Part shown: positions 4,023 through 58,603 of the stretch, one piece after another
How positions within the stretch are numbered: the stretch's first letter is position 1
Layout of the letters: every line of letters begins with the position of its first letter
Source of the DNA: an uncultured bacterium
GTDB taxonomy: Bacteria; Desulfobacterota; Deferrimicrobia; Deferrimicrobiales; Deferrimicrobiaceae
Direction: 5' to 3'
Assembly (NCBI GenBank): GCA_963741515.1
Contig: CAVUIA010000001.1
Location: 323,767-387,766, forward strand
DNA: 64,000 bases
The notes under the pieces: generated by a model
Databases searched by the model: none
What the model saw: the letters and a program-made list of their open reading frames with translations, nothing else
Told to the model about the DNA's origin: nothing
Made by a program: the position numbers and the translations under genes

Positions 4023-4852
4023 CGGGTACGGAAAGCTCCTCTCCCTCCTTCGGGAAATGGGATCGGCGGTCGTCGCCTTCAGCGGGGGCGTCGACAGCTC
4101 CCTGCTGCTCCACGCCGCGAAGGAAGCGCTGGGGGACCGTGTGCTGGCCGTGACGGCCGTTTCGCCCACCTACCCCGCCGCCGAGCGGGAAGAGGCCTCG
4201 TCCCTCGCGAAGGCGTGGGGCGTCCGCCACCGCCTCGTCGAATCCGACGAGCTGAAGATCCCCGGATTCTCGGAGAACCCGCCGGACCGCTGCTACCACT
4301 GCAAGAAGGAGCTGTTCGGCATCCTCTCCGCCATCGCCCGGGAAGAAGGGTACGCCGCGGTCTGCGACGGGTCGAACGCGGACGACGCCCGCGTTTACCG
4401 TCCCGGCCGCCGCGCGGCGAAGGAGCTGGCCGTGCGGAGCCCCCTGGAGGAGGCCGGACTGACGAAGGAGGAGATCCGCGCTTTAAGCCGCCGGTTCGGG
4501 CTCCCGACGGCGGACCGCGGCTCGTTCGCCTGCCTGGCGTCCCGGTTCCCCTACGGCGCGTCGATCGACCGGGAGAAGCTGGCCCGCGTGGAAGCGTGCG
4601 AGGAGGCGCTGCGGCGTCTGGGCTTCCGGCAGTTCCGGGTCCGCGTCCACGGCGCGGTCGCCCGGATCGAGGTGGACCGCGACGAGATCCCCCGCCTCTT
4701 CGACGCCTCGACGGCCGACGCCGTCCACGACCATTTCCGGAAGAACGGCTTCCTCTACGTCTCCGTGGACCTGAAGGGATACCGCGCGGGGTCGATGGAC
4801 GAGGGGCTGCCGGAGGCCGCCCGCGGCTGGTCGACTGCCCGACGACCTGCTG
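4006..4852 (+). CDS. PP-loop ATPase of the LarE/COG1606 family (ATP-dependent sulfur transferase-like); 3' end uncertain
   Basis: GTG start with a GGAGG Shine-Dalgarno. Motifs SGGVDSS and CYHCK. Homology ends near the GSMDE motif (about 4810), but the frame stays open to 5292, so the stop was probably lost to an indel. Confidence 0.6.
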
Positions 4853-4855
4853 TAA

Positions 4856-5675
4856 GTCCGCAAGGGTCGCTGCCTTCGCACGGGATGCTCTCCGTTCGGG
4901 GACGCTCGCTCACCCTCCATGGCTCACTGCGGCTGCGGGTTTTCCTCGCTCCCGGCCTCCCTGCCTCGCTCGAGAAAACACGCCCCCTGCAGGGGAGCAT
5001 CTCGTGCTCGAGGCGACCCTTGCGGCCAACACCCCCAGCTCAGGCCACCTCCACAAGCCACCTATACAAGCCCACCGTAGACACAGGCCAACCGAGAGGG
5101 ACGTCTCTCTACGGAAAGTACGTACGGAAAAGCTTCCGATATAGGCGTAGGCGGTTTCGGGGGACAGACTTCGATTTATCGATAAAGGGTGGAGGGGAAG
5201 TCTGTCCCACGCTCAGCACGTACGGAAAACCTATCGATGTCCCCGGTGGCGAGGTCGCTCTTGCTCTGTCATCCTGTTGGTTTCCGGTTTAGTCGCACGC
5301 AAGGGTCGCTCCGAGCACGAGACCTCCCTACTTGGGGTCGGAGGCGGATCAAGGCGACAAGATCGCGGAGCGCCATGATGCCGCGTAAGCCGAAAGGGTG
5401 TCCCCTGAACGCAGGGACGAAAGTGTGGAACCGGCGGAGATCCCGCCTTCTTTATAGGCGGAAGCATTCGATGACCAATACGGGATGACGAAGGCCGGGA
5501 AAGCATTGATAAGGCAGGTTCGCTGGTCGAAGCCGGGGAACTGCGGCCCGCAGTGAACGGGGACAGCCCTTTTCGGCGTAAGCGGTATCCGTTGGCTCCG
5601 CGAACCGATCGCCTTGATCCGCCTGCAAGCCGTCCCCGAGGAGAGCATCTCGTGTGAGGGCAGCGGCCCTCGCGG
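4856..5675. other. ORF-free, highly structured region between convergent genes (candidate large ncRNA or decayed element)
   Basis: No protein-like frame on either strand. Several long-range complementary segments and a 12-bp hairpin; details are given in the findings. Confidence 0.35.
5134..5208 (+). repeat. hairpin-containing repeat element, copy A (stem GGACAGACTTC / GAAGTCTGTCC)
   Basis: The 11-12 bp stem, a loop carrying the palindrome TATCGATA, and about 25 nt of flank are homologous to the element at 58533-58603 in the opposite orientation. Confidence 0.5.
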
Positions 5676-7117
5676 TCACATCTTGAGGATGTTGGACTTG
5701 AAGATCATCTTCTCGTGGTCGTCGCCGTCCTCGGGGAACGAGGCGTGGCCGAACCGGACGTCCACGCGGGCGTCCTTCGACTTCTTCCGGATTTCGTCGA
5801 CTTCGACCGCGATGGCCTTCTTGATGCGGGGGATGGCGCTCATCTTGCCGTCCTCCGCCTCGGGCAGGATCATCCCGAACTTCGACGTCGCTGATCCGCG
5901 CCACGACGTCGTATTCCCGCAGCGTGTCCCGGAGCGTCTTCGCCACCCGCTTCATCACCCAGTCGCCGCGGCCGACGCGGGGGAGCGCCTCGTCGGGGAC
6001 CCGGGCCTGCACCTCGCAGATCATGAGCACCAGCCGGCGCTGGAACCGCTCGCGCCCGGCTGATCTCGTGCAGGAGGCGGTCCTGGAAATACTTCAGCGT
6101 GGGAAGGCTGGTCGCCTCGTCGAGGTTCCGCAGCCGGTCGTTCCGCTCGTAGGCGATGGCGTTGGCGACCGCCTTTTCGACGTACCGGACGTACTTCCCG
6201 AAGGTGGTCAGGTCCTCGGTGGTGAAGGAGGACGGGAAGAAGGTCTTGTGGGGGAACTTGTCGAAGATCGTCACGGTCCCCAGGACGCCCTCGTCCCCCC
6301 GCAGGGGGAGGCAGATCAGCGTCCGGGCGACGTCTCCGAATTCACGCCATTCGTTCTCCGAGGAGATGTCGCGCACCAGCAGCGACGGCTCGCCCTTGAG
6401 GATCCGCGTGACCGCCTTCTTGTCGAGGAGGAAGAGTTCCTTCTGCTCCCCTTCCGTCTTCATCCCGTAGGATTCCCGGATCCCGTACTTCCCCGTCTGG
6501 GGATCGAGGAGGCGGATGACGCACGTTTCCGCCTCCATGATCAGGCAGGCGGACGTCGCCACCAGCTTGAGAAGCCGCGAGAGGTCGAGCGTGGAGATGA
6601 TGTTGACCCCCGCCTCGTTGATGGCGGCGATCTTGGTCATCCGCAGGAGGGCGGATTCCTCCCGGAGCGATGCGCCCACCGTGTCGGCCAGCACCTTCGA
6701 GACTTCGGCGATGGCCGCCTGCCGGTCCTCGGGGATTCCCGCCTCGGTCACCGCATAGATGACGAGGACGCCGTGCGGCTCCCCGGAGGACACCAGGGGC
6801 ATCATCAGGACGGCCCCCTGCCTCCGGCTCCCCGCGGGGGGCACCCGCTCCTCGAGGACGACGGGGCGCCTTTCCGAGAGGGCGAGCTCTTCGAGGGTGC
6901 CCTCGGACGCGAAGTGGACCTCGGGGGCGGAGGGGTGCGTCCTGCGGGTGGAAGTCCTTACGAAGAAATCCTCGCTGTCCCGGTCGAAGAGCAGGACGGA
7001 AACGGTCCCGCCGCCGACGAACCCGGACACCTCTTCGCACACCACCTTGAGCCGTTCCTCGATCGGTTTTCCCGACCGCAGGATTTCTGCCGCGTTTTTG
7101 ACGAACGCATCGGGCAA
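5676..7117 (-). CDS. GAF-GAF-GGDEF-family protein with a degenerate GGDEF motif (SDVEF); reading frame broken twice
   Basis: Two GAF-like regions, then a GGDEF fold (...YFQDRLLHEISRARA | RERFQRRLVLMICEV...GDWVMKRVAKTL...ARISDVEF | GMILPEAE...). Single-base frame shifts lie near 6050 and near 5875, both in the same direction. Confidence 0.7.
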
Positions 7118-12732: not shown

Positions 12733-14283
12733 CGGTGGACCCCGAAGACCGACCGCATCGCGCCGGAGATCTCCCCCAGCGTCGCCAGGGCGCGCACGGC
12801 GTCGAGGATCGGGCCCATGACGTTGCGCTTCCCCCGGCACGCGGAGACGAGGACGTCCAGGGAAGACCGGACCGCGGACGCGTCGCGCCGCTTCCGCAGG
12901 GACGCCAGCCGGCGGCGCTGCTCCCTCCCGATCCGCGGGTTCACCTTCAGGAGCCCCTTCGGCGGCTTTTCCTCCACGACGTGCGCGTTCACGCCGACGA
13001 CGATCCTCTCCTTCCGCTCCACTTCCATCTGGTGGCGGTAGGAGGCTTCCCGGATCTCCCCCTGTATGTATCCGGAGTCGATCGCGGCGACGGCGCCGCC
13101 CATGCGGTCGATCCGGCGGATGTACTCGGCCGCCCGCTTCTCCAGGGAGTTCGTCAGCGCCTCGACGCACCAGGAGCCCCCCAGGGGATCGATCGCGCCG
13201 GCCACCCCGCTCTCGTGGGCGAGGATCTGCTGGGTCCTCAAGGCGATCCGGACCGATTCCTCGGAGGGAAGGGACAGCGCCTCGTCCCGCGAATTGGTGT
13301 GGAGCGACTGGGCCCCGCCGAGGACGGCGGCCAGCGCCTGGATCGTCACGCGGACGATGTTGTTGTCCGGCTGCGCGGCCGTCAGCGTGGAGCCGGCGGT
13401 CTGCGCGTGGAAGCGCAGCATCCACGACCGCGGGTCCTTCGCGCGGAACCGGTCGCGCATGATCCTCGCCCAGAGCCGCCGCGCGGCGCGGAACTTCGCG
13501 ACCTCCTCCAGCAGGTCGTTGTGGGCGTTGAAGAAGAACGCGAGCCGCGGCGCGAAGGAGTCGACCGGCATCCCGGCGTCGATCGCGGCCTGGACGTAGG
13601 CGATGCCGTCGGCCAGCGTGAAGGCGATCTCCTGCGCCGCCGTGGAGCCGGCCTCGCGGATGTGGTAGCCGGACACGCTGATGGCGTTCCACCGGGGCAT
13701 GGCGTCCCGGCAGTACGCGAGGACGTCCGTGACGATCCGCATCGAGGGGGCGGGCGGGAAGATGTAGGCGCCCCGGGCGACGTACTCCTTGAGGATGTCG
13801 TTCTGCACGGTGCCGGCAAGCGCCGCCGGCGGCGTCCCCTGCTTCTCCGCGACGGCGACGTACATCGCGAGCAGGACGGCCGCGGTCGCGTTGGCCGTCA
13901 TCGAGGTGGACACCCGGCCGAGGGGGATCCCGTCGAAGAGGAGCTCCATGTCCTCGAGGGAGTCGATCGCCACGCCCGACCTTTCCGACCTCCCCGGCCG
14001 ACATGGGGTCGTCGGAGTCGTACCCCATCTGGGTGGGAAGGTCGAAGGCGACCGACAGGCCGTCCTGGCCCTGGTCGAGCAGCCAGCGGAACCGCCGGTT
14101 CGACTCGCGCGCGTCCCCGAAGCCGGCGTACTGCCGCATCGTCCAGGGGCGGCCCCGGTACATCGTCGGGTGCACGCCGCGCGTGAAGGGGAATTCGCCG
14201 GGGTGCCCGGCGTCCCTCGAGTAATCGAACCCTTCCAGGTCCCGCGGGGTGTAGAGCCCCTCCCGTCGCGTCCGCTTCCCCAA
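12729..14283 (-). CDS. methylmalonyl-CoA mutase-family catalytic (large) subunit; one frame shift near 13790
   Basis: N-terminus [21 protein letters not shown]...[24 protein letters not shown] and the catalytic TIM-barrel body are conserved through ...[26 protein letters not shown]. Confidence 0.8.
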
Positions 14284-14293
14284 CGGAGCGTCC

Positions 14294-15568
14294 CTACCCC
14301 TTCGCGCCGAAAAGGGCGTGGCGCACGAGCTCGGCGATGTGGACGATCCGGACGGATGGGTCGACGCGGGCGGTCATGTCCCGCATCTGGAGGACGCATC
14401 CCGAGCAGGCGGCGGCGATGACCTTCGTCCCCCCCTTCGCGGCGACGGACACCTTGTTCTCCCCGATCTTCGCCGAGGAGGGATAGTCCCGGATGTTGAA
14501 GGTCCCGCCGTAGCCGCAGCACAGGTCCGCCCCCTTCATCTCCTTGAAGGCGTCCCCCACCGCCTTGGCCAGCACGCGCCGCGCCTCGGGCCCCTTCCCC
14601 AGCGTCCCCGTCAGGTGGCAGGAGTCGTGGTAGCCGATCTCCCCGGGCCGTTCGGCCGGCGGGGGATCGGGCAGCCGGTCGACGACCCCCGTGTCGAGGA
14701 TGAAGCTCGCGTAATCCGTGCAGCGGTCCGCCACGAAGGCCGCGTCGTCATGGAGCGGGTGCCCTTCCTTGAACAGGGAAGGGATGTTCCGCTTGAACAT
14801 GAGGAGGCACGACCCGCAGGGGAAGACGATCGTCCCGGGCGCCGCCGCGCGCAGCCGCCGCAGGTTCGCCTCGATGTTCTCGAGGGCCGACTTCCGGTCG
14901 CCGGAAACGAGCGCGGGAAGGCCGCAGCACGCCGCCTCCCGGAACACCGAGACGGGCTTCCCGGAGGCCTTCATCGTCTCGTACGCCGCGCGCCCCACGT
15001 CGGGGTAGAAGTGGTCGAACACGCAGCCGACGAAGAGCATCACGTCGCCTTCGTTCGCCTCGTCCTTCCCGAGCGACTCGATGAACCCCTTCGCCGGGAG
15101 CTCCGGGATCGTCCTGCCGCCGGTGAGGAACTCCGCCGGGAACCGGTAGTGGAGCCCGCTCCCCGTGGGGACTTTCTTCAGGAAGAGGCGCTCCGCTACG
15201 GCGCCCGCCTTCCGCATCGCCCGCATCGTCGCGTCGGACGGCATCACCTTCCCGAACAGGATGCTCTTCCACGCCGGGACGCCGACTTCGTCCGCCAGGT
15301 CGGCCCGCCCCCGCATGACGATCTCCTCGTAGAGGACCTGGTTGGGGCACTCCCGCTCGCACCGCCCGCACAGGAGGCAGTCGGCCAGCGCCTCCTGCAC
15401 CGCCGCCGAATCCTTTGCTTCGCCGGACAGCGCGCTCTCGAGGATGCACACCTTCCCCCGGGCCGCCGCGTTCTCCGTCTTCCGGTACGGGTACAGGGTG
15501 CAGACCGTCCGGCAGGTCCCGCACTTCGCGCACAGGCCCGCCATTTCCCGCAGTTCGTCGTCCTTCAC
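14294..15568 (-). CDS. (Fe-S)-binding oxidoreductase with two 4Fe-4S Cys clusters and CCG domains (GlcF/HdrD-like)
   Basis: Motifs [15 protein letters not shown] and [12 protein letters not shown], plus CCG-type motifs (CCGLPA, CCGYGG). GTG start overlaps the glcD-like stop. An alternative ATG lies at 15544. Confidence 0.75.
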
Positions 15569-50836: not shown

Positions 50837-53800
50837 GTGATGACGCGGATCCCCCCATCCATACGGAAGCCGTCCCGGTACAGCGGGAGCGAAATCCGCC
50901 CCGCGCTGATTCCCTGGGAAGACGCCAAAACGCGCGTCCTGCTTGCGTTTCCCGACGCGTACGAGATCGGGATGTCCCACCTGGGGATCCTCCTGCTCCA
51001 CGAGATCCTCAACGCGCGGCCCGGGACGCTCTGCGAGCGCGTCTTCGCCCCGTGGACCGACTACGCGGAGCATCTGCGCGCCTCGGGGGAGCCGCTCCCG
51101 TCGCTCGAGTCGGGGCGCCCGGCCGGCTCCTTCGACATGGTCGGGTTCTCCCTCTGCTACGAGCTCACCTACACCAACGTCCTCATGATGCTGGAATTGG
51201 CGGGGATCCCGCTCCTGTCGAAGGACCGGGGCGAGGGGCATCCCCTGGTCGTCGGGGGGGGCGTCTGCACGCTGAACCCCGCCCCCGTCGCCCCCTTCTT
51301 CGACGCCCTCCTCGTGGGGGACGGCGAAGAGGCGGCGCTGGAGATCGTCTCCGCCGTCGAGGAGCGCAAGGCGAAGGGAGGGTCCCGCGCCGACCTGCTG
51401 GCGACGCTCGCCGGGATCGCCGGCGTGTACGTGCCGGGGGTCTCCATGGGCGTCTCCCGCCGGGTGCTGCCCGACCTCGCCCTCTCGCCGCTGCTGCCCG
51501 CGCCCATCCTCCCGTCGATGCGCGTGGTGCACGACCGGCTGAGCATCGAGATCTCCCGCGGCTGCACCCGGGGCTGCCGGTTCTGCCAGGCCGGCTACGC
51601 GTACCGGCCGGTGCGGGAGCGCGACCCGCTCGCGGTGCTGGCCTACCTGCAGGAAAGCGCCCCCAAGACGGGGTACGACGAGGTGGGGCTCCTGTCGCTC
51701 TCGGCCGCCGACTACAGCTGCATCGACCGGCTCGTCACCGAGGCGATGGACGCGCTGGCCCCGGACCACGTCTCCCTTTCGCTCCCGGCGCTGCGGCTGG
51801 ACGCCCTGACGGAGAACACGGTCGAGCAGCTCCGCAAGGTGCGCAAGTCGGGGTTCACGCTGGCGCCCGAGGCGGGGACGGAACGGCTGCGCCGCTCCGT
51901 GAACAAGGACATCCTCGACGACGACGTCCTCAAGACGGCGGAGTGGATCTTCGGGAACGGCTGGCAGACCCTCAAGCTCTATTTCATGGTGGGGCTCCCC
52001 GGCGAGACGAGCGAGGACGTGCGCGCCATCGGCCTGCTGGCGAAGCGGGTCGCCGCGGTCGCCCGGCGCAAGGGGAAGCGCTGCTCCGTCACGGTGAGCG
52101 TCTCCCCGTTCGTCCCGAAGCCGCACACGCCGTTCCAGTGGGAGCGCCAGGCCGGGCGGGACGAGATGCACGAGCGGATCCGGATCGTGCGGGACGCCCT
52201 CGGGCGGGAGCGGAACGCGGAGCTGAAGCACGCCTCGCCGGAGGTTTCCGAGCTGGAGGGCGTCTTCTCGCGCGGCGACGGCCGCCTCCCTTCGGTCATC
52301 CTTTCGGCGTACCGCAACGGGGCGCGGTTCGACGCGTGGACGGAGGAATTCCGCCCCGAGGCGTGGAGCCGGGCCTTCGCGGAGGCCGGCATCGACCCGC
52401 TCGAATACCTGAAGGAACGCGACCCGGCCGCCCCGCTCCCCTGGGACGTCGTCGACGCGGGCATCGACCGCGGCTTCCTGCTCGCCGAGCGGGAGAAGGC
52501 GCGGACCGGCGAGATCACCCCCGACTGCCGCTCCGCGGGATGCACCTCCTGCGGGGCGTGCCCGCCGGGGCTTTCGAACATAACGTACGCGGGCCGGCTG
52601 GCGGCGCCCTCCCCCGCCCCGGAGCCGGCGGCCCCCGCGCCGCCCGCGCCCTCCCCCCAGGCGCCGCCGCGGCGCCACGTCGTGCGGATCGCCTACGCCA
52701 AGGAGGGGCCGGCGAAATACCTGAGCGGCCTGGAGATCCAGTCGCTGTGGGGGCGCACTTTACGGCGCGCCGGGCTGCCGATCGCGTACAGCCAGGGGTT
52801 CAACCCCGCGCCGAAGCTTTCCCTCGGGCCGGCGCTGGCGGTCGGAACCGACAGCGGCTGCGAGTTCCTCGAGGCGGAGTTCACCCTTCCGGTCGTCGCC
52901 TCGGAGCTCCCGTCGATCCTGCCTCCGCACCTCCCCGCGGGCGTCCGCGTGATCGAGGCGAAGACGGTCCCGCCGGGCTCCCCGCGCATGTCCGACTACG
53001 ACCTGGCGTCCGACTACTCCCTGCGCCCGCTCCCCGGCTTCGCGCTCCCGGAAGGGATCACGCCTTCCCTGGCCGCGGAGCGGTTCGCCGCGTTCCGCGC
53101 CGCGCAAGCCTTTCCGCTGGCGCTCGTCCGCGAAGCGCAGGTGACCGAGGTGGACCTCCGCCCGCTGGTCGACGATTTCAAGGTGAATGCGGAGGGCATC
53201 TTCATTAAAATCATACAGGGCACGGGAAAAGGGGTGCGGCCGGCCGAGGCCGCCGCGGCGATCCTCGGCGTTCCGCTTTCGCCCGACCGGCTCGTCGTCA
53301 GGAAGGAATCGGCGGAGCCTGATCCCCCGCCCGGGAAAGACATGATGCAGAGACCCAGCAGGCACATCGTGGTGAACGCCGCGCCGTACGAGACGCGCGT
53401 GGCCACCCTCGAGTCCGGCGCCCTCGCGGAGCTGCTCATCGAACGGGGCGAGGACAAGAACTCCGTCGGCAACATCTACAACGGGAAGGTCATCCGGGTC
53501 CTGCCCGGCATGCAGGCCGCCTTCGTCGACATCGGCATGGACAAGGCGGGGTTCCTCTTCGCGGGCGACTTCGTCACCCCGCAGCTCGAGTTCGACACCG
53601 ACCCGGTCGAGGACCCCGGCCTCCCCGACGACATCGGCATCCGCCCGGCCCGCTACCCGCAGGACCATTTCCTCCCGCCGATCGAGGGGCTGATCCGCGA
53701 AGGGCAGCACCTCCTGGTCCAGGTCGCCAAGGAGCCGCTGGGGACGAAGGGCGCGCGGATCACCAGCCACATCACCCTGCCCGGCCGCCACCTGGTGCTC

Positions 53801-54874
53801 CTCACCTGGTCGAACCACATCGGGATCTCCCGGCGCATCGAGGACCCCGAGGAGCGGGACCGGCTGACGAAGATCGTCGAGTCGATCCGGCCCGAGGGGA
53901 TGGGCGCCATCGTCCGCACCGCCGCGGAGGGCGGCACCGAGGATTCGCTCCGGACCGACATGGACTACCTCGTCCGCCTGTGGGAGACGATCCGCAAGAA
54001 GAGCGAGAACGCCGCGGCCCCCGCCCTGATCCACCGCGAGCTCTCCCTTTCCATGCGCGCGGTGCGCGACCTGTTCTCCAGCGACTCGGACCGGATCGTG
54101 GTCGACTCCCCCGAGGAGCACACCCGGATCCGCGCGTTCGCCCAGCAGTTCTTCCCGCGCATCCTGGACAGGATCGAGCTGTACAACGGCCCCGAGCCCA
54201 TCTTCGACAACTACGGCATCGAGATCGAGGTGAACCGGGCGCTCGACAAGAAGGTGTGGCTCAAGAGCGGCGGGTACATCGTGATCGAGCAGACGGAGGC
54301 GCTCACCGTCGTCGACGTGAACACGGGGAAGTACGTCGGCCGCTCCTCGCTCGAGGACACGACGGTCAAGATCAACCTCGAGGCGGTCAAGGAGATCGTC
54401 TACCAGCTGCGGCTGCGCAACATCGGCGGGATCATCATCATCGACTTCATCGACATGAAGAGCGAGGAGAACCGCGAGAAGGTGTACAACGCCCTCGTCG
54501 ACGCGCTGGTGGCGGACCGCAGCAAGACGACGATCTGCAAGATCTCGGAGCTCGGGCTGGTCGAAATGACCCGGAAGCGCGTCCGGGAGAGCCTGGGGCG
54601 CTCCCTCTCCGAGGGCTGCCCCTACTGCTCGGGCGAAGGCGTCATCAAGTCGAAGAAGACGATCTGCTACGACATCTTCCGCGCCCTCGAGCGCCAGAGC
54701 CTGCTCCTGTCGGGCCGGCAGGTGTCGCTGTACGTCCACCCCGCCCTCGCCGAGGAGCTGTTCGGGGAGGAGCGCCGGTTCCTCGAGATCCTCGAGCAGA
54801 AGTTCGGCATGAAGGTGAACATCTCGGCGTCCGAGAAGTTCCACATCGAGCAGTACCGGATCGAGCCGAGCTGA
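50837..54874 (+). CDS. single 1345-aa ORF fusing a radical SAM domain, a DUF2344-like domain and an RNase E/G-family ribonuclease
   Basis: CTRGCRFCQAGY radical-SAM cluster (residues about 1-600), then HVVRIAYAKEGPAKYLSGLEIQSLWGRTLRRAGLP (DUF2344-like), then an S1 domain and RNase E/G catalytic core from MMQRPSRHIVVNAAPYETRVA. No stop in between. The first ATG is at 50840. Confidence 0.75.
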   Translation: MMTRIPPSIRKPSRYSGSEIRPALIPWEDAKTRVLLAFPDAYEIGMSHLGILLLHEILNARPGTLCERVFAPWTDYAEHLRASGEPLPSLESGRPAGSFDMVGFSLCYELTYTNVLMMLELAGIPLLSKDRGEGHPLVVGGGVCTLNPAPVAPFFDALLVGDGEEAALEIVSAVEERKAKGGSRADLLATLAGIAGVYVPGVSMGVSRRVLPDLALSPLLPAPILPSMRVVHDRLSIEISRGCTRGCRFCQAGYAYRPVRERDPLAVLAYLQESAPKTGYDEVGLLSLSAADYSCIDRLVTEAMDALAPDHVSLSLPALRLDALTENTVEQLRKVRKSGFTLAPEAGTERLRRSVNKDILDDDVLKTAEWIFGNGWQTLKLYFMVGLPGETSEDVRAIGLLAKRVAAVARRKGKRCSVTVSVSPFVPKPHTPFQWERQAGRDEMHERIRIVRDALGRERNAELKHASPEVSELEGVFSRGDGRLPSVILSAYRNGARFDAWTEEFRPEAWSRAFAEAGIDPLEYLKERDPAAPLPWDVVDAGIDRGFLLAEREKARTGEITPDCRSAGCTSCGACPPGLSNITYAGRLAAPSPAPEPAAPAPPAPSPQAPPRRHVVRIAYAKEGPAKYLSGLEIQSLWGRTLRRAGLPIAYSQGFNPAPKLSLGPALAVGTDSGCEFLEAEFTLPVVASELPSILPPHLPAGVRVIEAKTVPPGSPRMSDYDLASDYSLRPLPGFALPEGITPSLAAERFAAFRAAQAFPLALVREAQVTEVDLRPLVDDFKVNAEGIFIKIIQGTGKGVRPAEAAAAILGVPLSPDRLVVRKESAEPDPPPGKDMMQRPSRHIVVNAAPYETRVATLESGALAELLIERGEDKNSVGNIYNGKVIRVLPGMQAAFVDIGMDKAGFLFAGDFVTPQLEFDTDPVEDPGLPDDIGIRPARYPQDHFLPPIEGLIREGQHLLVQVAKEPLGTKGARITSHITLPGRHLVLLTWSNHIGISRRIEDPEERDRLTKIVESIRPEGMGAIVRTAAEGGTEDSLRTDMDYLVRLWETIRKKSENAAAPALIHRELSLSMRAVRDLFSSDSDRIVVDSPEEHTRIRAFAQQFFPRILDRIELYNGPEPIFDNYGIEIEVNRALDKKVWLKSGGYIVIEQTEALTVVDVNTGKYVGRSSLEDTTVKINLEAVKEIVYQLRLRNIGGIIIIDFIDMKSEENREKVYNALVDALVADRSKTTICKISELGLVEMTRKRVRESLGRSLSEGCPYCSGEGVIKSKKTICYDIFRALERQSLLLSGRQVSLYVHPALAEELFGEERRFLEILEQKFGMKVNISASEKFHIEQYRIEPS

Positions 54875-54884
54875 ACCACAGATC

Positions 54885-55055
54885 GGGGACGTTGATGAGT
54901 TCTCCCGCAGAACGGGGACACTCATGGGGACCACAAAACGGGGACGGACATGAGAAGGCCAACCTTCGTGCCTTCACGACTTCTCATGTACGTCCCCGTT
55001 ATTTTGGTCCGCTCTTCTCTGTCCCTAAACTGCGGGAGAACTCATCAACGTCCCG
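54885..55055. repeat. 171-bp nested palindrome (outer 26-bp perfect inverted repeat, inner 21-bp inverted repeat), MITE-like or large hairpin
   Basis: GGGGACGTTGATGAGTTCTCCCGCAG at 54885-54910 is exactly complementary to 55030-55055. Inner arms AACGGGGACgGACATGAGAAG and CTTCTCATGTACGTCCCCGTT pair too. Confidence 0.7.
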
Positions 55056-55061
55056 GTTCTG

Positions 55062-56303
55062 CTATTCGACCACGCTAATCCAGAACGCCTCGATGCCCCC
55101 CGCCACGGCGTAACCGCGCGCCTTGACCTGGATATTGTTGTCGATGGCCGCATCGGTCAGTCGCGCGTGGGGGAAAGCCGCGTTGTCGTAGTACGCAAGG
55201 GACCGGTCCGGTATCGGGAAGACCGCGTTGTCCGACGCCAGCCGGAGATCGAACGTGTTGTCGGCCTTCCACCCGCCATCGACAACACCCGTTAATTCGG
55301 CCGGGAAGGTGATGCCCACCTTCTCCGCCACGAGAACGCCGCCCAGGAACGTCCCGATCACGTGCACAAGGGCGGTGTCCCGCAGGGCATCGGGGCCCGA
55401 AATTCCCAACGAAGCCAACGAACCCACGTAACGCCCATCATAGTAGTACCAGAGGGTCCCCGATCCGTAATCGACGCCGACGTTGTCGCTGGCCGTCTTC
55501 ACGACGAATGTCCCGTTCGCACGGTCCACCTGGTCCGCGACGCCGGTGACGATGTAATTCGGGGCGCCGACCACCTCCGCGAAGACCTGCGGCCGCAGCA
55601 GGACGTTGCCGCTGCCGCCGGCCTGGTGGTACTTCAGGCCGACCACATTGATGACCACCGAGTAGAACCGGATCCCTCCCTGCGGGTCCGAAGACGCCGG
55701 GATCACGAGTTTCCCGCCGACGAAGTGAACGTCGAAGTGGTAATGCGCCGTGGGGTGGAACAGCACATCGGGCGCGCCCGCGGCGCGGCCGACCACGTTG
55801 TCGTAATACATCCGGATCTTGGAATACTCGCCCGCCGGCACCGAGGAAAACCTGTTCAGCACATTTCCCGCCATCTCCCCCCCCGTCGGGGGATGAAGCA
55901 GGTCGATCACGACGGGTTCGGCCAGCTCCACCGTGACGAACTCCGACGACCTGCCCTCCTCGGCGTGGGAGTTCATCGTTTCCAGCTCCCCGTTATGGTC
56001 CGGGAATTGGGTATGGTCGGCGGGGATCAGCGCCAGTCTCGTCACCGTCACGAAGACGTTGTCGAAGGCCGGGGAATTCCCGGGCGCCGCTGCGATATCC
56101 GATGACACGCTCGAGGATGCCAACGTCGCCCCCGCGGGGAAAGCCGTGGCGGACGCGATGGAGACGTTGACCGAGGCCGCTCCGGACGTGCCGGAGGAGG
56201 AGGACGTCCCCCCCCCTCCCCCGCAGGCCGCAAGGCCGGCGGTGATCATAAGGACAAGCAGCAGGCGGATCGCGGTGCGCGATGTTTCAGACAGAGACTT
56301 CAT
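55062..56303 (-). CDS. hypothetical lipoprotein (413 aa)
   Basis: MKSLSETSRTAIRLLLVLMITAGLAAC lipobox, then a Gly/Ser-rich linker. ATG follows a GAGGAGGGG Shine-Dalgarno. Confidence 0.65.
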   Translation of the reverse strand: MKSLSETSRTAIRLLLVLMITAGLAACGGGGGTSSSSGTSGAASVNVSIASATAFPAGATLASSSVSSDIAAAPGNSPAFDNVFVTVTRLALIPADHTQFPDHNGELETMNSHAEEGRSSEFVTVELAEPVVIDLLHPPTGGEMAGNVLNRFSSVPAGEYSKIRMYYDNVVGRAAGAPDVLFHPTAHYHFDVHFVGGKLVIPASSDPQGGIRFYSVVINVVGLKYHQAGGSGNVLLRPQVFAEVVGAPNYIVTGVADQVDRANGTFVVKTASDNVGVDYGSGTLWYYYDGRYVGSLASLGISGPDALRDTALVHVIGTFLGGVLVAEKVGITFPAELTGVVDGGWKADNTFDLRLASDNAVFPIPDRSLAYYDNAAFPHARLTDAAIDNNIQVKARGYAVAGGIEAFWISVVE

Positions 56304-56349
56304 GTTCCCCTCCTCTATGGTTCCATTTAATGTCGGTTCGCCGATTTTC

Positions 56350-57345
56350 CTACCTGAAAACAATCCTCGATGCGGAAAGAACGCCGCCGTTTTCCCTCCC
56401 CTGAACCTGGACTTTCCTGTCGGGCTCCCCGGCATCGGCCGAACCGCCGCCGATGAACGCCGTATCGGCGCTCCATACCACCCTCTTCCCCTCCACTTTG
56501 AAGGAGAGATCGTTTCCGGAACCGCCCCATGGCGTCGTGACCAGGCCGGTGAGGGCGGCCTCGGCCCCCTCCGGAAAATCGGTCCGCGCGGCATGCGTCT
56601 CCACACGGGTGGCGGTGATGATGTTGGCGACAGGCGCCCGGTCGGTCGTTACGACCTGAACGTATGAGCCGTTCGCGGGCCCGCCCGCGGGGAAGGAAAC
56701 CGTCACGGTTGTCCCGGAGCCGTCCGGCAGCGGCCCGACGCGAAAACCGGCCGCGGACGATGCGGAGACGAACCCATGGACTTCGAACTCCTGGAAAGGC
56801 GGCGGCATCGGGGGACCCGCGACGGAAACGTACGCCGCACGGATCCGCCCGGCGTTATCCGCATACCCGCTGACCTCCACGACGTCGTCCAGGCCGAGGG
56901 AGAGAAAGAGCGCGGCATTATCCACGACGACGGCCTGTCCCAGGATTCCGATGACGTTGTCGGCGCCGGGGACGATCGCGCTAATGGGCCCCCGCAGGCT
57001 GTTCCGGTATTCGATCGCCCGGGCGTTGTTGTCGCCTGTCCCGTATCGAACCGTCACGACCATCCCCTCGGAGAAAACATCCCTGTCCTTCTGGTGAGAC
57101 TTGTCCGCCCCGTTGACCCACTTTCTCGTCATGTATCCGGGAGCCACGTTGTTGTCCGTGCGGAAATGCACATCGTTGACAACGACGCTGCCGAAGCCGG
57201 AGATCTCGCCCGTGCTGATCCCCGTGCCGCCCGTTCCGCCGCCGGCGAAATCGGTGCCGCTCGTCCCGCAAGAGAGGGAGAGAAGAACCAGCAAGAGCAT
57301 CGGTGCCCCGATACGGAATACGGGCGTTCGATTCGCCGGTTTCAT
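56350..57345 (-). CDS. hypothetical lipoprotein (331 aa)
   Basis: MKPANRTPVFRIGAPMLLLVLLSLSCG lipobox. Its start overlaps the stop of the upstream gene. Confidence 0.65.
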   Translation of the reverse strand: MKPANRTPVFRIGAPMLLLVLLSLSCGTSGTDFAGGGTGGTGISTGEISGFGSVVVNDVHFRTDNNVAPGYMTRKWVNGADKSHQKDRDVFSEGMVVTVRYGTGDNNARAIEYRNSLRGPISAIVPGADNVIGILGQAVVVDNAALFLSLGLDDVVEVSGYADNAGRIRAAYVSVAGPPMPPPFQEFEVHGFVSASSAAGFRVGPLPDGSGTTVTVSFPAGGPANGSYVQVVTTDRAPVANIITATRVETHAARTDFPEGAEAALTGLVTTPWGGSGNDLSFKVEGKRVVWSADTAFIGGGSADAGEPDRKVQVQGRENGGVLSASRIVFR

Positions 57346-58172
57346 CTCTCCCCTCCCCCGCCGCCATCCCCCTGGAAATAATAGATGCCGACCCCCGCCC
57401 GCATTTTGCCCGTCCCGGCGACCCCGGGATGGAAGTCCCGGTCCTGCCGGCTCAACTCGCCGTCCAGATTTTCCAGGAGCTCCTGCGCCCGGGCCGCTGC
57501 GAGCGCCCTGAACCCGGGAAGCGCCTCGGAAGGAAGGTTGTCGTAGCAGACCTTCCTCTGGTAGAACAGGTCGCCCATTCGCTGGATGTTGTGGTCGATC
57601 GTCGATATCAGGTCCGCCGTGTCGACGCCCAGGATGCCGATCTTGTCGATCTCGCCGGTTTTCGGGATGTAGGACCGCTCGAGCAACCGCATGTTTCCTT
57701 CCTGCGTCCGCTCGACCGCCCCGAGTCTCAGAAGTTCATCGAGCACCGCCCGGGCGGGGGCGTCGCCGCTGTAGATCTTGACCAGTTCCCCGAAGCAGGC
57801 GGCATCCCCTTCGAACGGCAGCTCCATCGGCCGCCCCGATTCCCGATGGAACCGCGGGTCCCGCACCCAGCCGCCGATCACGCGCGCCGCCCGGTTGTAC
57901 CGTTCCGCAGCGCCCATATCGTCCGTGGGCGGCAGGCGCCTCACGCGCAGGACTTCCTTGCGCGACAGGCCGGTGATGATGGACACCCGCGATTTGGACT
58001 GCTTCCTTCCGGCGATTCCGAATTCCTCCTCCATGGCGACGTCCACGTATACCCGCTTCGCGAGATCGGAAAACGTCCGGTAAGGGATGCCGTTTCTCAG
58101 GAGGAGCCTTACCAGCGGGCGGAGCATGGTCGCGACGGCCGCCGATAAGGCCTGGGTGATTTTCGATTCCAT
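57342..58172 (-). CDS. hypothetical protein (276 aa), first gene of a three-gene operon with the two lipoproteins
   Basis: Intact ORF with normal composition and a possible N-terminal HTH-like stretch (RTFSDLAKRVYVDVAMEEEFGIAGRKQSKSRVSIITGLSRKEVLR). No confident family. Confidence 0.5.
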   Translation of the reverse strand: MESKITQALSAAVATMLRPLVRLLLRNGIPYRTFSDLAKRVYVDVAMEEEFGIAGRKQSKSRVSIITGLSRKEVLRVRRLPPTDDMGAAERYNRAARVIGGWVRDPRFHRESGRPMELPFEGDAACFGELVKIYSGDAPARAVLDELLRLGAVERTQEGNMRLLERSYIPKTGEIDKIGILGVDTADLISTIDHNIQRMGDLFYQRKVCYDNLPSEALPGFRALAAARAQELLENLDGELSRQDRDFHPGVAGTGKMRAGVGIYYFQGDGGGGGER

Positions 58173-58174
58173 AT

Positions 58175-58191
58175 TTGGGAATTTATTCCCA
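58175..58191. promoter_or_regulatory. 16-bp perfect palindrome TGGGAATTTATTCCCA immediately upstream of the start codon of the 57342-58172 gene
   Basis: Exact inverted repeat in the AT-rich divergent region shared with the tRNA-Thr promoter. Confidence 0.3.
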
Positions 58192-58320
58192 TTTTAAATC
58201 AGTGTCAACTATTAATAAACGGGCGATCGATCGCCTGCCCTTTCATTGCGGGGCGATTCCGGCTTGACTTTGTCCGACCGCCCTATCTATATTTATAAAT
58301 TCGCGAGTTACCGTTCGTGC

Positions 58321-58395
58321 GCCGGCGTAGCTCAGTGGTAGAGCAGCTGATTCGTAATCAGCAGGTCGTCGGTTCAATCCCGACCGCCGGCTCCA
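58321..58395 (+). tRNA. tRNA-Thr (anticodon CGU) with encoded CCA
   Basis: Cloverleaf read directly: acceptor GCCGGCG/CGCCGGC, D-arm GCTC-AGTGGTA-GAGC, anticodon stem GCTGA/TCAGC with loop TTCGTAA, T-arm GTCGG-TTCAATC-CCGAC, discriminator T, CCA. A TTGACT-N18-TATATT promoter-like motif lies upstream. Confidence 0.9.
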
Positions 58396-58505
58396 CGTTT
58401 TTCCCATGCCGATACGTGAGGGATTGAACCTACGCACAATCCCGATGGCCATGGATGGCCAAGTGCCGGCGCGGCCAGGGATGGCCACGGATCTTGTTGC
58501 GCCGG

Positions 58506-58521
58506 CCGACCGCCGGCTCCA
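58506..58521 (+). repeat. 16-nt direct repeat of the tRNA-Thr 3' end (CCGACCGCCGGCTCCA), 111 bp downstream of the tRNA
   Basis: Exact match to tRNA positions about 58380-58395. Signature of a former site-specific integration at the tRNA. Confidence 0.6.
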
Positions 58522-58532
58522 CTCCTGGTGGA

Positions 58533-58603
58533 GGACAGACTTCCCCTCCGCCCGTTATCGGTAAATCGAAGTCTGTCCCCTGCCGCCTCCCCTTCCCCTA
58601 TCG
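58533..58603 (-). repeat. hairpin-containing repeat element, copy B (inverted relative to copy A at 5134-5208)
   Basis: Same stem GGACAGACTTC/GAAGTCTGTCC. The loop is the reverse complement of copy A's loop with three substitutions. The flank CGATAGGGGAAGGGGAGGCGGCAGGGGAC resembles CGATATAGGCGTAGGCGGTTTCGGGGGAC. Confidence 0.5.

Follow-up and report, generated by a model that had tools for sequence, protein, structure and literature searches.

The 64-kb stretch of DNA analysed here (the window) contains a 187-bp non-coding repeat element located between two convergent genes, the setting given for its palindrome in the original prediction. The element starts right after the TGA of the upstream frame and ends right before the CTA of the downstream gene, and it therefore makes up the entire intergenic spacer (Table 1). 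The upstream open reading frame (ORF; 50837-54874) encodes radical-SAM, DUF2344 and RNase E/G domains, and the downstream convergent ORF has a weak match to DUF4382; the C-terminal residues of its product resemble those of the convergent gene of two relatives' loci, L007 and L038. The upstream protein has its nearest homologues, radical-SAM/DUF2344 proteins of 830 aa that cover only 61% of the query, in metagenome-assembled genomes (MAGs) labelled Deltaproteobacteria, Desulfobacteria, Thermodesulfobacteriota or Candidatus Deferrimicrobium. The relatives have two genes here, one for the radical-SAM/DUF2344 protein and one for a 509-aa RNase G (rng), which are separate or slightly overlapping. 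The window has one extra C near position 53318 (region 53300-53350), reading GAGCCTGATCC where four relatives have GAG-CTGATCC. This C sits 26 nt upstream of the stop of the first gene and shifts reading into the RNase G frame, whose own start codon (MQRPS...) is intact. The "RNase E/G fusion" described earlier therefore exists nominally, as one ORF, but the 1345-aa radical SAM/DUF2344-RNase E/G product is the result of a single-base frameshift relative to the relatives. Judged from the sequence, the extra C could be either a genuine frameshift or an assembly error.

Table 1. Coordinates of the repeat element, its parts and the flanking stop codons in the window.
Feature	Position	Strand	Remarks
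Stop codon TGA of the RNase G frame	54872..54874	+	same codon as in all relatives
Whole repeat element	54875..55061	.	187 bp; spans the full gap between the two convergent stop codons
Left outer arm, perfect 25-bp portion GGGACGTTGATGAGTTCTCCCGCAG	54886..54910	.	includes the invariant core of the family, GGGACGTWGATGAGTTCT (invariant columns, 21-copy alignment)
Second sub-unit, left side CAGAACGGGGACACTCATGGG	54908..54928	.	
Inner nested hairpin (B-type unit)	54930..55008	.	arms 54930-54957 and 54980-55008; loop of 22 nt, 54958-54979
Right-side partner of the second sub-unit CGCTCTTCTCTGTCCCTAAACTG	55010..55032	.	
Right outer arm	55030..55054	.	exact reverse complement of 54886-54910
Stop codon TAG (CTA on the + strand) of the convergent DUF4382-like gene 55062-56606	55062..55064	-	

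The element is palindromic far beyond chance, and perfect outer arms of 25 bp, as found here, have an expectation of zero in shuffled sequences. It had been described as a 171-bp nested palindrome (54885-55055) with exact outer arms of 26 bp; the palindrome stands, but its terminal pair, 54885/55055, is G opposite G and the perfect arms are accordingly one base pair shorter. When mismatches are allowed, the outer pairing reaches 54879-54920 and 55020-55061 (42 nt, 86%). The trinucleotide AAC at 54911-54913 lies opposite AAA at 55027-55029 in a conserved asymmetric internal loop, and the inner core pair of 21 nt with one mismatch was found as predicted, at 54937-54957 and 54980-55000. A B-type unit with GGGGACGTACATGAG arms identical to those of this inner hairpin is present at another locus, L035. 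Folding also agreed with the predicted hairpin of approximately 170 nt: the RNA of positions 54870-55070 forms a single nested hairpin on either strand, with -122.9 kcal/mol on the + strand (z = -13.7) and -124.4 kcal/mol on the - strand (z = -14.9), and none of 200 shuffles folded as well. Regarding the internal repeats, a motif was thought to occur four times. The exact ACGGGGAC occurs only three times in the element (54912+, 54938+ and 54992-), the count of four applying to the 7-mer CGGGGAC, and the real repeated unit is about 18 nt long (AACGGGGACGNNCATGAG), with three forward and two reverse copies. The few matches with two mismatches to the 16-nt unit elsewhere in the window, located in coding sequence or at a start codon, were attributed to chance.

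The rng-adjacent copy is the only copy of the element in the 64-kb window. The sole Rfam match in the window at the gathering threshold is a tRNA, and a search of the element by E-value threshold gave only miRNA-hairpin look-alikes far below threshold (24 bits versus a gathering score of 96). The UGAUGAG sequence and a 5-bp stem were also considered as a hammerhead-like structure, a reading that was discarded because the CUGAUGA/GAAA core is absent and no Rfam ribozyme was found.

Repeats of other kinds are also present. A second small hairpin repeat, GGGGACAGACTTCGATTTAYCGATAAMGGGYGGAGGGGAAGTCTGTCC, occurs twice in the window in opposite orientations (5160-5209, +; 58524-58580, -) and was not found in the relatives' loci examined; the GGGGACAGAC stem of this repeat is similar to the inner stem in the A-type unit described below. 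A non-coding stretch of around 700 nt (4950-5680), with no Rfam match, contains long inverted repeats at 5000-5024 / 5298-5322 (25 nt, 92%) and 5335-5398 / 5568-5631 (64 nt, 75%). The region 58321-58522 holds a tRNA-Thr(CGT) and, behind it, a 126-nt unit whose last 17 nt exactly duplicate the 3' end of the tRNA (58380-58396 and 58506-58522). A 119-nt unit of the same tRNA-Thr-linked kind is found in L037 (8186-8458), in 2.3 tandem copies up to the contig end; L004 has repeats of the unit as well (14270-14560), and in L024 there is a gene nearby that resembles a tyrosine recombinase, as identified by eye from the sequence. These tRNA-Thr-linked repeats may represent att-site debris of integrative elements, or another tRNA-linked repeat.

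Comparison of the rng 3' site among relatives shows that it is occupied by the element in the window and in L001/L002, L004 and L024. The version found immediately 3' of the rng stop is longer in L001/L002 (approximately 240 nt), shorter in L004 (approximately 115 nt) and of the long type in L024, and L004 has its interior in the opposite orientation to that of the window copy. Four other loci (L007, L037, L038 and L039) have an empty site. L007 and L038 share the gene order of the window, with rng and the convergent gene, and have a hairpin of 9-13 bp rich in GC instead of the element, while in L037 and L039 rng is directly followed by the tRNA-Thr promoter. At the four element-free loci, the RNase G protein is 92-94% identical. 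A neighbour-joining tree built from rng groups the four occupied genomes as a clade and places the four empty ones outside it; identity at four-fold sites, counted from the window, is 0.78-0.81 within this clade versus 0.61-0.69 to the outgroups. The simplest account of the distribution on the tree is a single ancestral insertion followed by vertical inheritance, and we infer that the element entered the 3' end of rng once, in the ancestor of the clade, and has been inherited vertically since then.

The downstream DNA at this site also varies. A block of approximately 3.2 kb between rng and tRNA-Thr, which comprises the DUF4382-like gene and other genes on the - strand, is present in the window (55062-58320), L007 and L038 and absent from L001, L004, L024, L037 and L039. 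Arrangements with and without the block are found both inside and outside the element-bearing clade, and in the occupied genomes its breakpoint falls at the right-hand boundary of the element.

No terminator-like site, that is, no stem followed by a U-tract, was detected on either strand between 54500 and 55500, where the tails beside the stem of the element are GGUUCUGCUAUUCG and GAUCUGUGGUUCAG, and a canonical promoter scan of the element found no promoter-like site. As the canonical U-tract is absent, efficient intrinsic termination is not predicted. The window also lacks the short GC hairpin of the empty convergent-type sites, its spacer consisting of nothing but the element. Being the only structure between the convergent stops, the element must either contain the ends of both transcripts or be read through by them. 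At present it may provide both convergent transcripts with their 3' stem-loop, having presumably taken over the place of the short hairpin. Such a role would be a passive one: the stem could block 3' exonucleases, terminate transcription weakly and/or be cut by RNase III, for which a perfect duplex of 25-32 bp is a plausible substrate. Processing by RNase III has been shown for Correia elements in transcripts (PMC10969869, PMC2649163), and hairpin repeats at 3' ends can alter mRNA decay via RNase E, as reported for ERIC in Yersinia (PMC10969869).

In order to identify other copies, the species-representative genomes were searched with a two-arm pattern, GGGACGNNNATGAG followed by a gap of 11-71 nt and CTCATNNNCGTCCC, which tolerates variable interiors and was checked first on the window and the known loci. 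The pattern found 23 stretches. By this strict criterion, MAG UBA2219 has 10 copies on 8 contigs and MAG binchicken_co43_350 has 10 copies on 9 contigs, and one copy is present in Deltaproteobacteria bacterium SKS1.bin8. Six pattern matches in Amycolatopsis, Streptomyces, Cohnella, Chloroflexota, Pirellulales and Rickettsiales were rejected as chance palindromes, for which nhmmer finds no link to the element. Used as nhmmer query, the window element retrieved family copies with E-values of 1e-13 to 1e-27 and no other matches, and positions 54875-55061 were aligned with copies of other loci across positions 1-187. A metagenome scan with the window-type arm (GTTGATGAG variant) added four more contigs, at other loci. 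The same architecture recurs between genes at approximately 15 different positions of related genomes; multi-copy status is thus established in the relatives, the source DNA examined being the 64-kb window with its one copy. The palindrome is consequently neither unique nor absent from the orthologous region of all relatives, and the additional copies that the original prediction proposed to search for exist in UBA2219, binchicken_co43_350, SKS1.bin8 and the metagenome contigs. The element had no BLASTN match in plasmids, the arm sequence matched no viral contig, and a literature search for the arm sequence returned no paper containing it.

The copies adjoin at least 14 unrelated genes of housekeeping type, among them those for an alpha/beta hydrolase, glutaredoxin, a LOG-family protein, MutS2, an M20 peptidase, MurJ, pyruvate kinase, TatC, ribulose-phosphate 3-epimerase (rpe) and aspartate decarboxylase (panD). 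All copies lie between genes or overlap just the last few codons; many begin directly after a stop codon and several occupy the gaps of convergent genes. Of the copies that UBA2219 and binchicken_co43_350 share, most are located at orthologous positions. The window contains no orthologues of the genes that flank the other family sites, so it provides no empty-site comparison for them. No transposase or RAYT gene was found beside the copies at the approximately 15 sites, and neither the window nor roughly 300 kb of the relatives' loci contained an insertion sequence (IS) with matching ends. The conserved CGTAGATGAG gives TAG and TGA in two reading frames, so that insertions at gene 3' ends are quickly terminated.

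In several places the reading frame of a neighbouring gene extends by a few codons into the repeat, stops at the TAG or TGA of CGTAGATGAG and gives a product ending in ...EPGRR* or ...RTGT* (L020 around 4600-4626, L025 around 4272-4295, L027 around 6522-6554, L033 around 743 and L035 around 1461-1483). At L034 (578-850), A-type arms (590-613 and 799-822) surround approximately 185 nt resembling the 3'-terminal part of an ORF on the - strand, and this ORF continues across the right arm; coding sequence may have been captured or split by this copy.

All copies share ends of about 26 nt, CCGCAGAACCGGGACGT[A/T]GATGAG, in inverted orientation, and between them the interior is variable yet self-complementary. 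Two types of unit can be distinguished. In the A-type unit, the shared end is followed by TTCT, seven variable bases, CA[G/A], an asymmetric internal loop of 3-4 nt and a GGGGACAGAG stem. In the B-type unit the shared end leads into AAGTCC, and next comes an asymmetric core of roughly 32 nt, which is seen in both orientations. The short form of the element consists of A alone and folds into a hairpin of about 110 nt (-84 to -87 kcal/mol), and in the long form, to which the window element belongs, a B unit with the same termini is nested in the loop of A. Copies range from 106 to 277 bp across the family, and at one orthologous site the short form is present in L010 and the long form in L020. 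The ends of the copies are ragged, with 2-15 nt of extra palindrome, and the target-site duplications that the original prediction proposed to look for were not found, as no consistent direct repeat exists at the boundaries of 21 copies.

Alignment of the 21 copies revealed 22 invariant arm positions, an invariance that is partly imposed by the search pattern. In the 21 aligned arm pairs, 85.6% of cells are paired, nine pairs (31 cells) have changed on both sides, and pairs 36-38, which correspond to the conserved internal loop, are unpaired in 13-17 of the copies. Covariation in the arms was no greater than in the shuffle control (63/500) and half of the pairs are invariant; the alignment thus lends no independent support to selection at the RNA level. 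Pair 18/83 switches between A-U and U-A in both arms jointly (15 versus 5 copies, with one broken pair). At the orthologous rng, glutaredoxin and rsmB-rpe sites, both arms carry the same lineage-specific A/T base, which requires either gene conversion or co-evolution with a trans-acting factor. Orthologous copies of the two MAGs are 84-93% identical, compared with 78-97% at the four-fold sites of the flanking genes, suggesting that the whole element drifts near the neutral rate and shows no sign of selection as a whole.

The position of the hairpin next to a ribonuclease gene had raised the possibility of a 3'-UTR structure recognised by RNase G, which could for example autoregulate its own mRNA. 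The element does abut the rng stop, four related genomes have retained it even with different downstream DNA, and the ERIC precedent indicates that hairpin repeats can expose RNase E sites (PMC10969869). However, it stands equally beside the unrelated genes listed above and is missing from the four more distant rng loci despite an RNase G protein that is 92-94% identical; moreover, among the orthologous copies at this very site the inner unit can be present, absent or different, or the interior inverted. This distribution largely refutes a specific role for RNase G, which we regard as scarcely credible. Very improbable, too, is a long bidirectional terminator or stabiliser that evolved locally and has no mobile history. 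Such an origin would fit the exact position between the convergent stops, the very stable stem on both strands and the replacement of the small GC hairpin of the relatives, but no stem with a U-tract was detected, and local evolution cannot produce the near-identical ends of 22-26 nt that occur at many unrelated loci in several genomes, so that a purely local origin is refuted.

Two further explanations concern the dispersed copies themselves. The arm sequence is invariant in itself and not merely in its pairing, which, together with the conserved internal loop and the shared lineage-specific base in both arms at three orthologous sites, would be expected of a domesticated array of binding sites for a putative host DNA-binding protein (a nucleoid or topology factor), immobile and kept by selection. 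The divergence of the whole element close to the synonymous-site rate and the low copy number speak against this, and we consider it improbable. The classification as a MITE, suggested in the original prediction, holds in substance: the element is small (less than about 500 bp) and non-coding, has terminal inverted repeats and multiple dispersed copies in the relatives, with around 15 unrelated intergenic sites and an rng site that is occupied or empty among relatives. Even several direct sub-repeats per end, comparable to multiple transposase-binding sites, are present. A classical MITE, in the sense of a deletion derivative of a DDE-transposase IS moved by cut-and-paste with target-site duplication, is nevertheless unlikely. 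Membership in that class fails for lack of the duplication, the ends being ragged with no consistent flanking repeats; in addition, the roughly 300 kb of loci contain no IS with these ends, and copies persist at orthologous positions across species.

Comparison with known repeat systems places the element closest in behaviour to REPINs and secondarily to the MITEs of the Correia and ERIC type, which is the best reading of its traits. Like REPINs (PMC3337134), it has two short conserved sequences, inverted around a hairpin-forming spacer whose length and sequence differ among copies; it is mainly extragenic, lacks target-site duplications, has a small built-in asymmetry that gives two orientations, and its copies are vertically inherited at orthologous positions across species. 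Apparent differences from REPINs are a count of at least 10 copies per MAG by the strict two-arm pattern, not hundreds, and a unit with no clear GC-rich palindromic core but just a 5-bp GTTCT-N5-AGAAC stem in one arm only; the family is also a nested composite, with A enclosing B. The Correia elements (CREE) of Neisseria are similar as intergenic sequences of 100-250 bp with terminal inverted repeats of about 26 bp and a long hairpin in the transcript (PMC2649163, PMC10969869), but they belong to another lineage, have no sequence similarity to the present family, and differ in the TA duplication and the promoter-like site, neither of which is found here. ERIC/IRU of enterobacteria are also imperfect palindromes at gene 3' ends, and ERIC alters mRNA decay through an RNase E site (PMC10969869); they too are dissimilar in sequence, and the present family has no preferential link to any one gene. 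The pneumococcal BOX, RUP and SPRITE repeats have modular sub-units and are inserted into one another (PMC10969869), which is paralleled here by the nesting of B in A and the varying number of sub-units, although the sequences are unrelated and the modules of the present family have identical termini.

The family is multi-copy, intergenic, non-coding, persistent at orthologous sites and not tied to RNase G. With good confidence, the palindrome of the window can be assigned to a lineage-specific family whose copies are dispersed, small, without coding capacity and able to fold into hairpins, and which has no special relation to RNase G. On this reading the family occurs in Deferrimicrobium-like bacteria of candidate phylum MBNT15, of which Candidatus Deferrimicrobium is a member (PMC9386147). 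It appears to be a new repeat family within a known class, undescribed so far. Mobility is deduced solely from the distribution of the copies, given that no transposase or RAYT gene accompanies them; as the copies shared by the two MAGs are mostly orthologous, they support persistence and not recent transposition. The family would be non-autonomous and would spread, or have spread, by way of recognition of its conserved ends. Four REPIN traits (PMC3337134), namely missing duplications, an inherent asymmetry, hairpin spacers that vary and persistence by vertical descent, suggest that mobilisation most probably followed a hairpin or single-strand route, of the REPIN/RAYT or IS200/IS605 type, and not DDE cut-and-paste.

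A more specific proposal, which we put forward tentatively and hold to be possible without expecting it, is that the family constitutes the non-autonomous half of a REPIN/RAYT-like system of MBNT15 (Deferrimicrobia). Its ends would co-evolve with a trans-acting protein, which would explain the shared lineage-specific A/T base at the three orthologous sites; copies would insert into each other's loops, and some, as in the window, would have been co-opted as the sole 3'-end structure of convergent genes in place of an ancestral terminator hairpin. To our knowledge, no REPIN/RAYT-like system has been described so far in this uncultured phylum.

A striking hairpin of 170 nt beside the gene of a ribonuclease readily suggests a regulatory function, a suggestion that the evidence contradicts; the value of the finding lies in annotation. 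It contributes a hairpin repeat from an uncultured phylum about which little is known, with modules nested in one another, without target duplications and long maintained at its orthologous sites. A cognate transposase, if found, would extend REPIN-like systems to this lineage. In addition, the occurrence of the empty site, the short form and the long form provides a natural series for asking whether such hairpins replace terminators.
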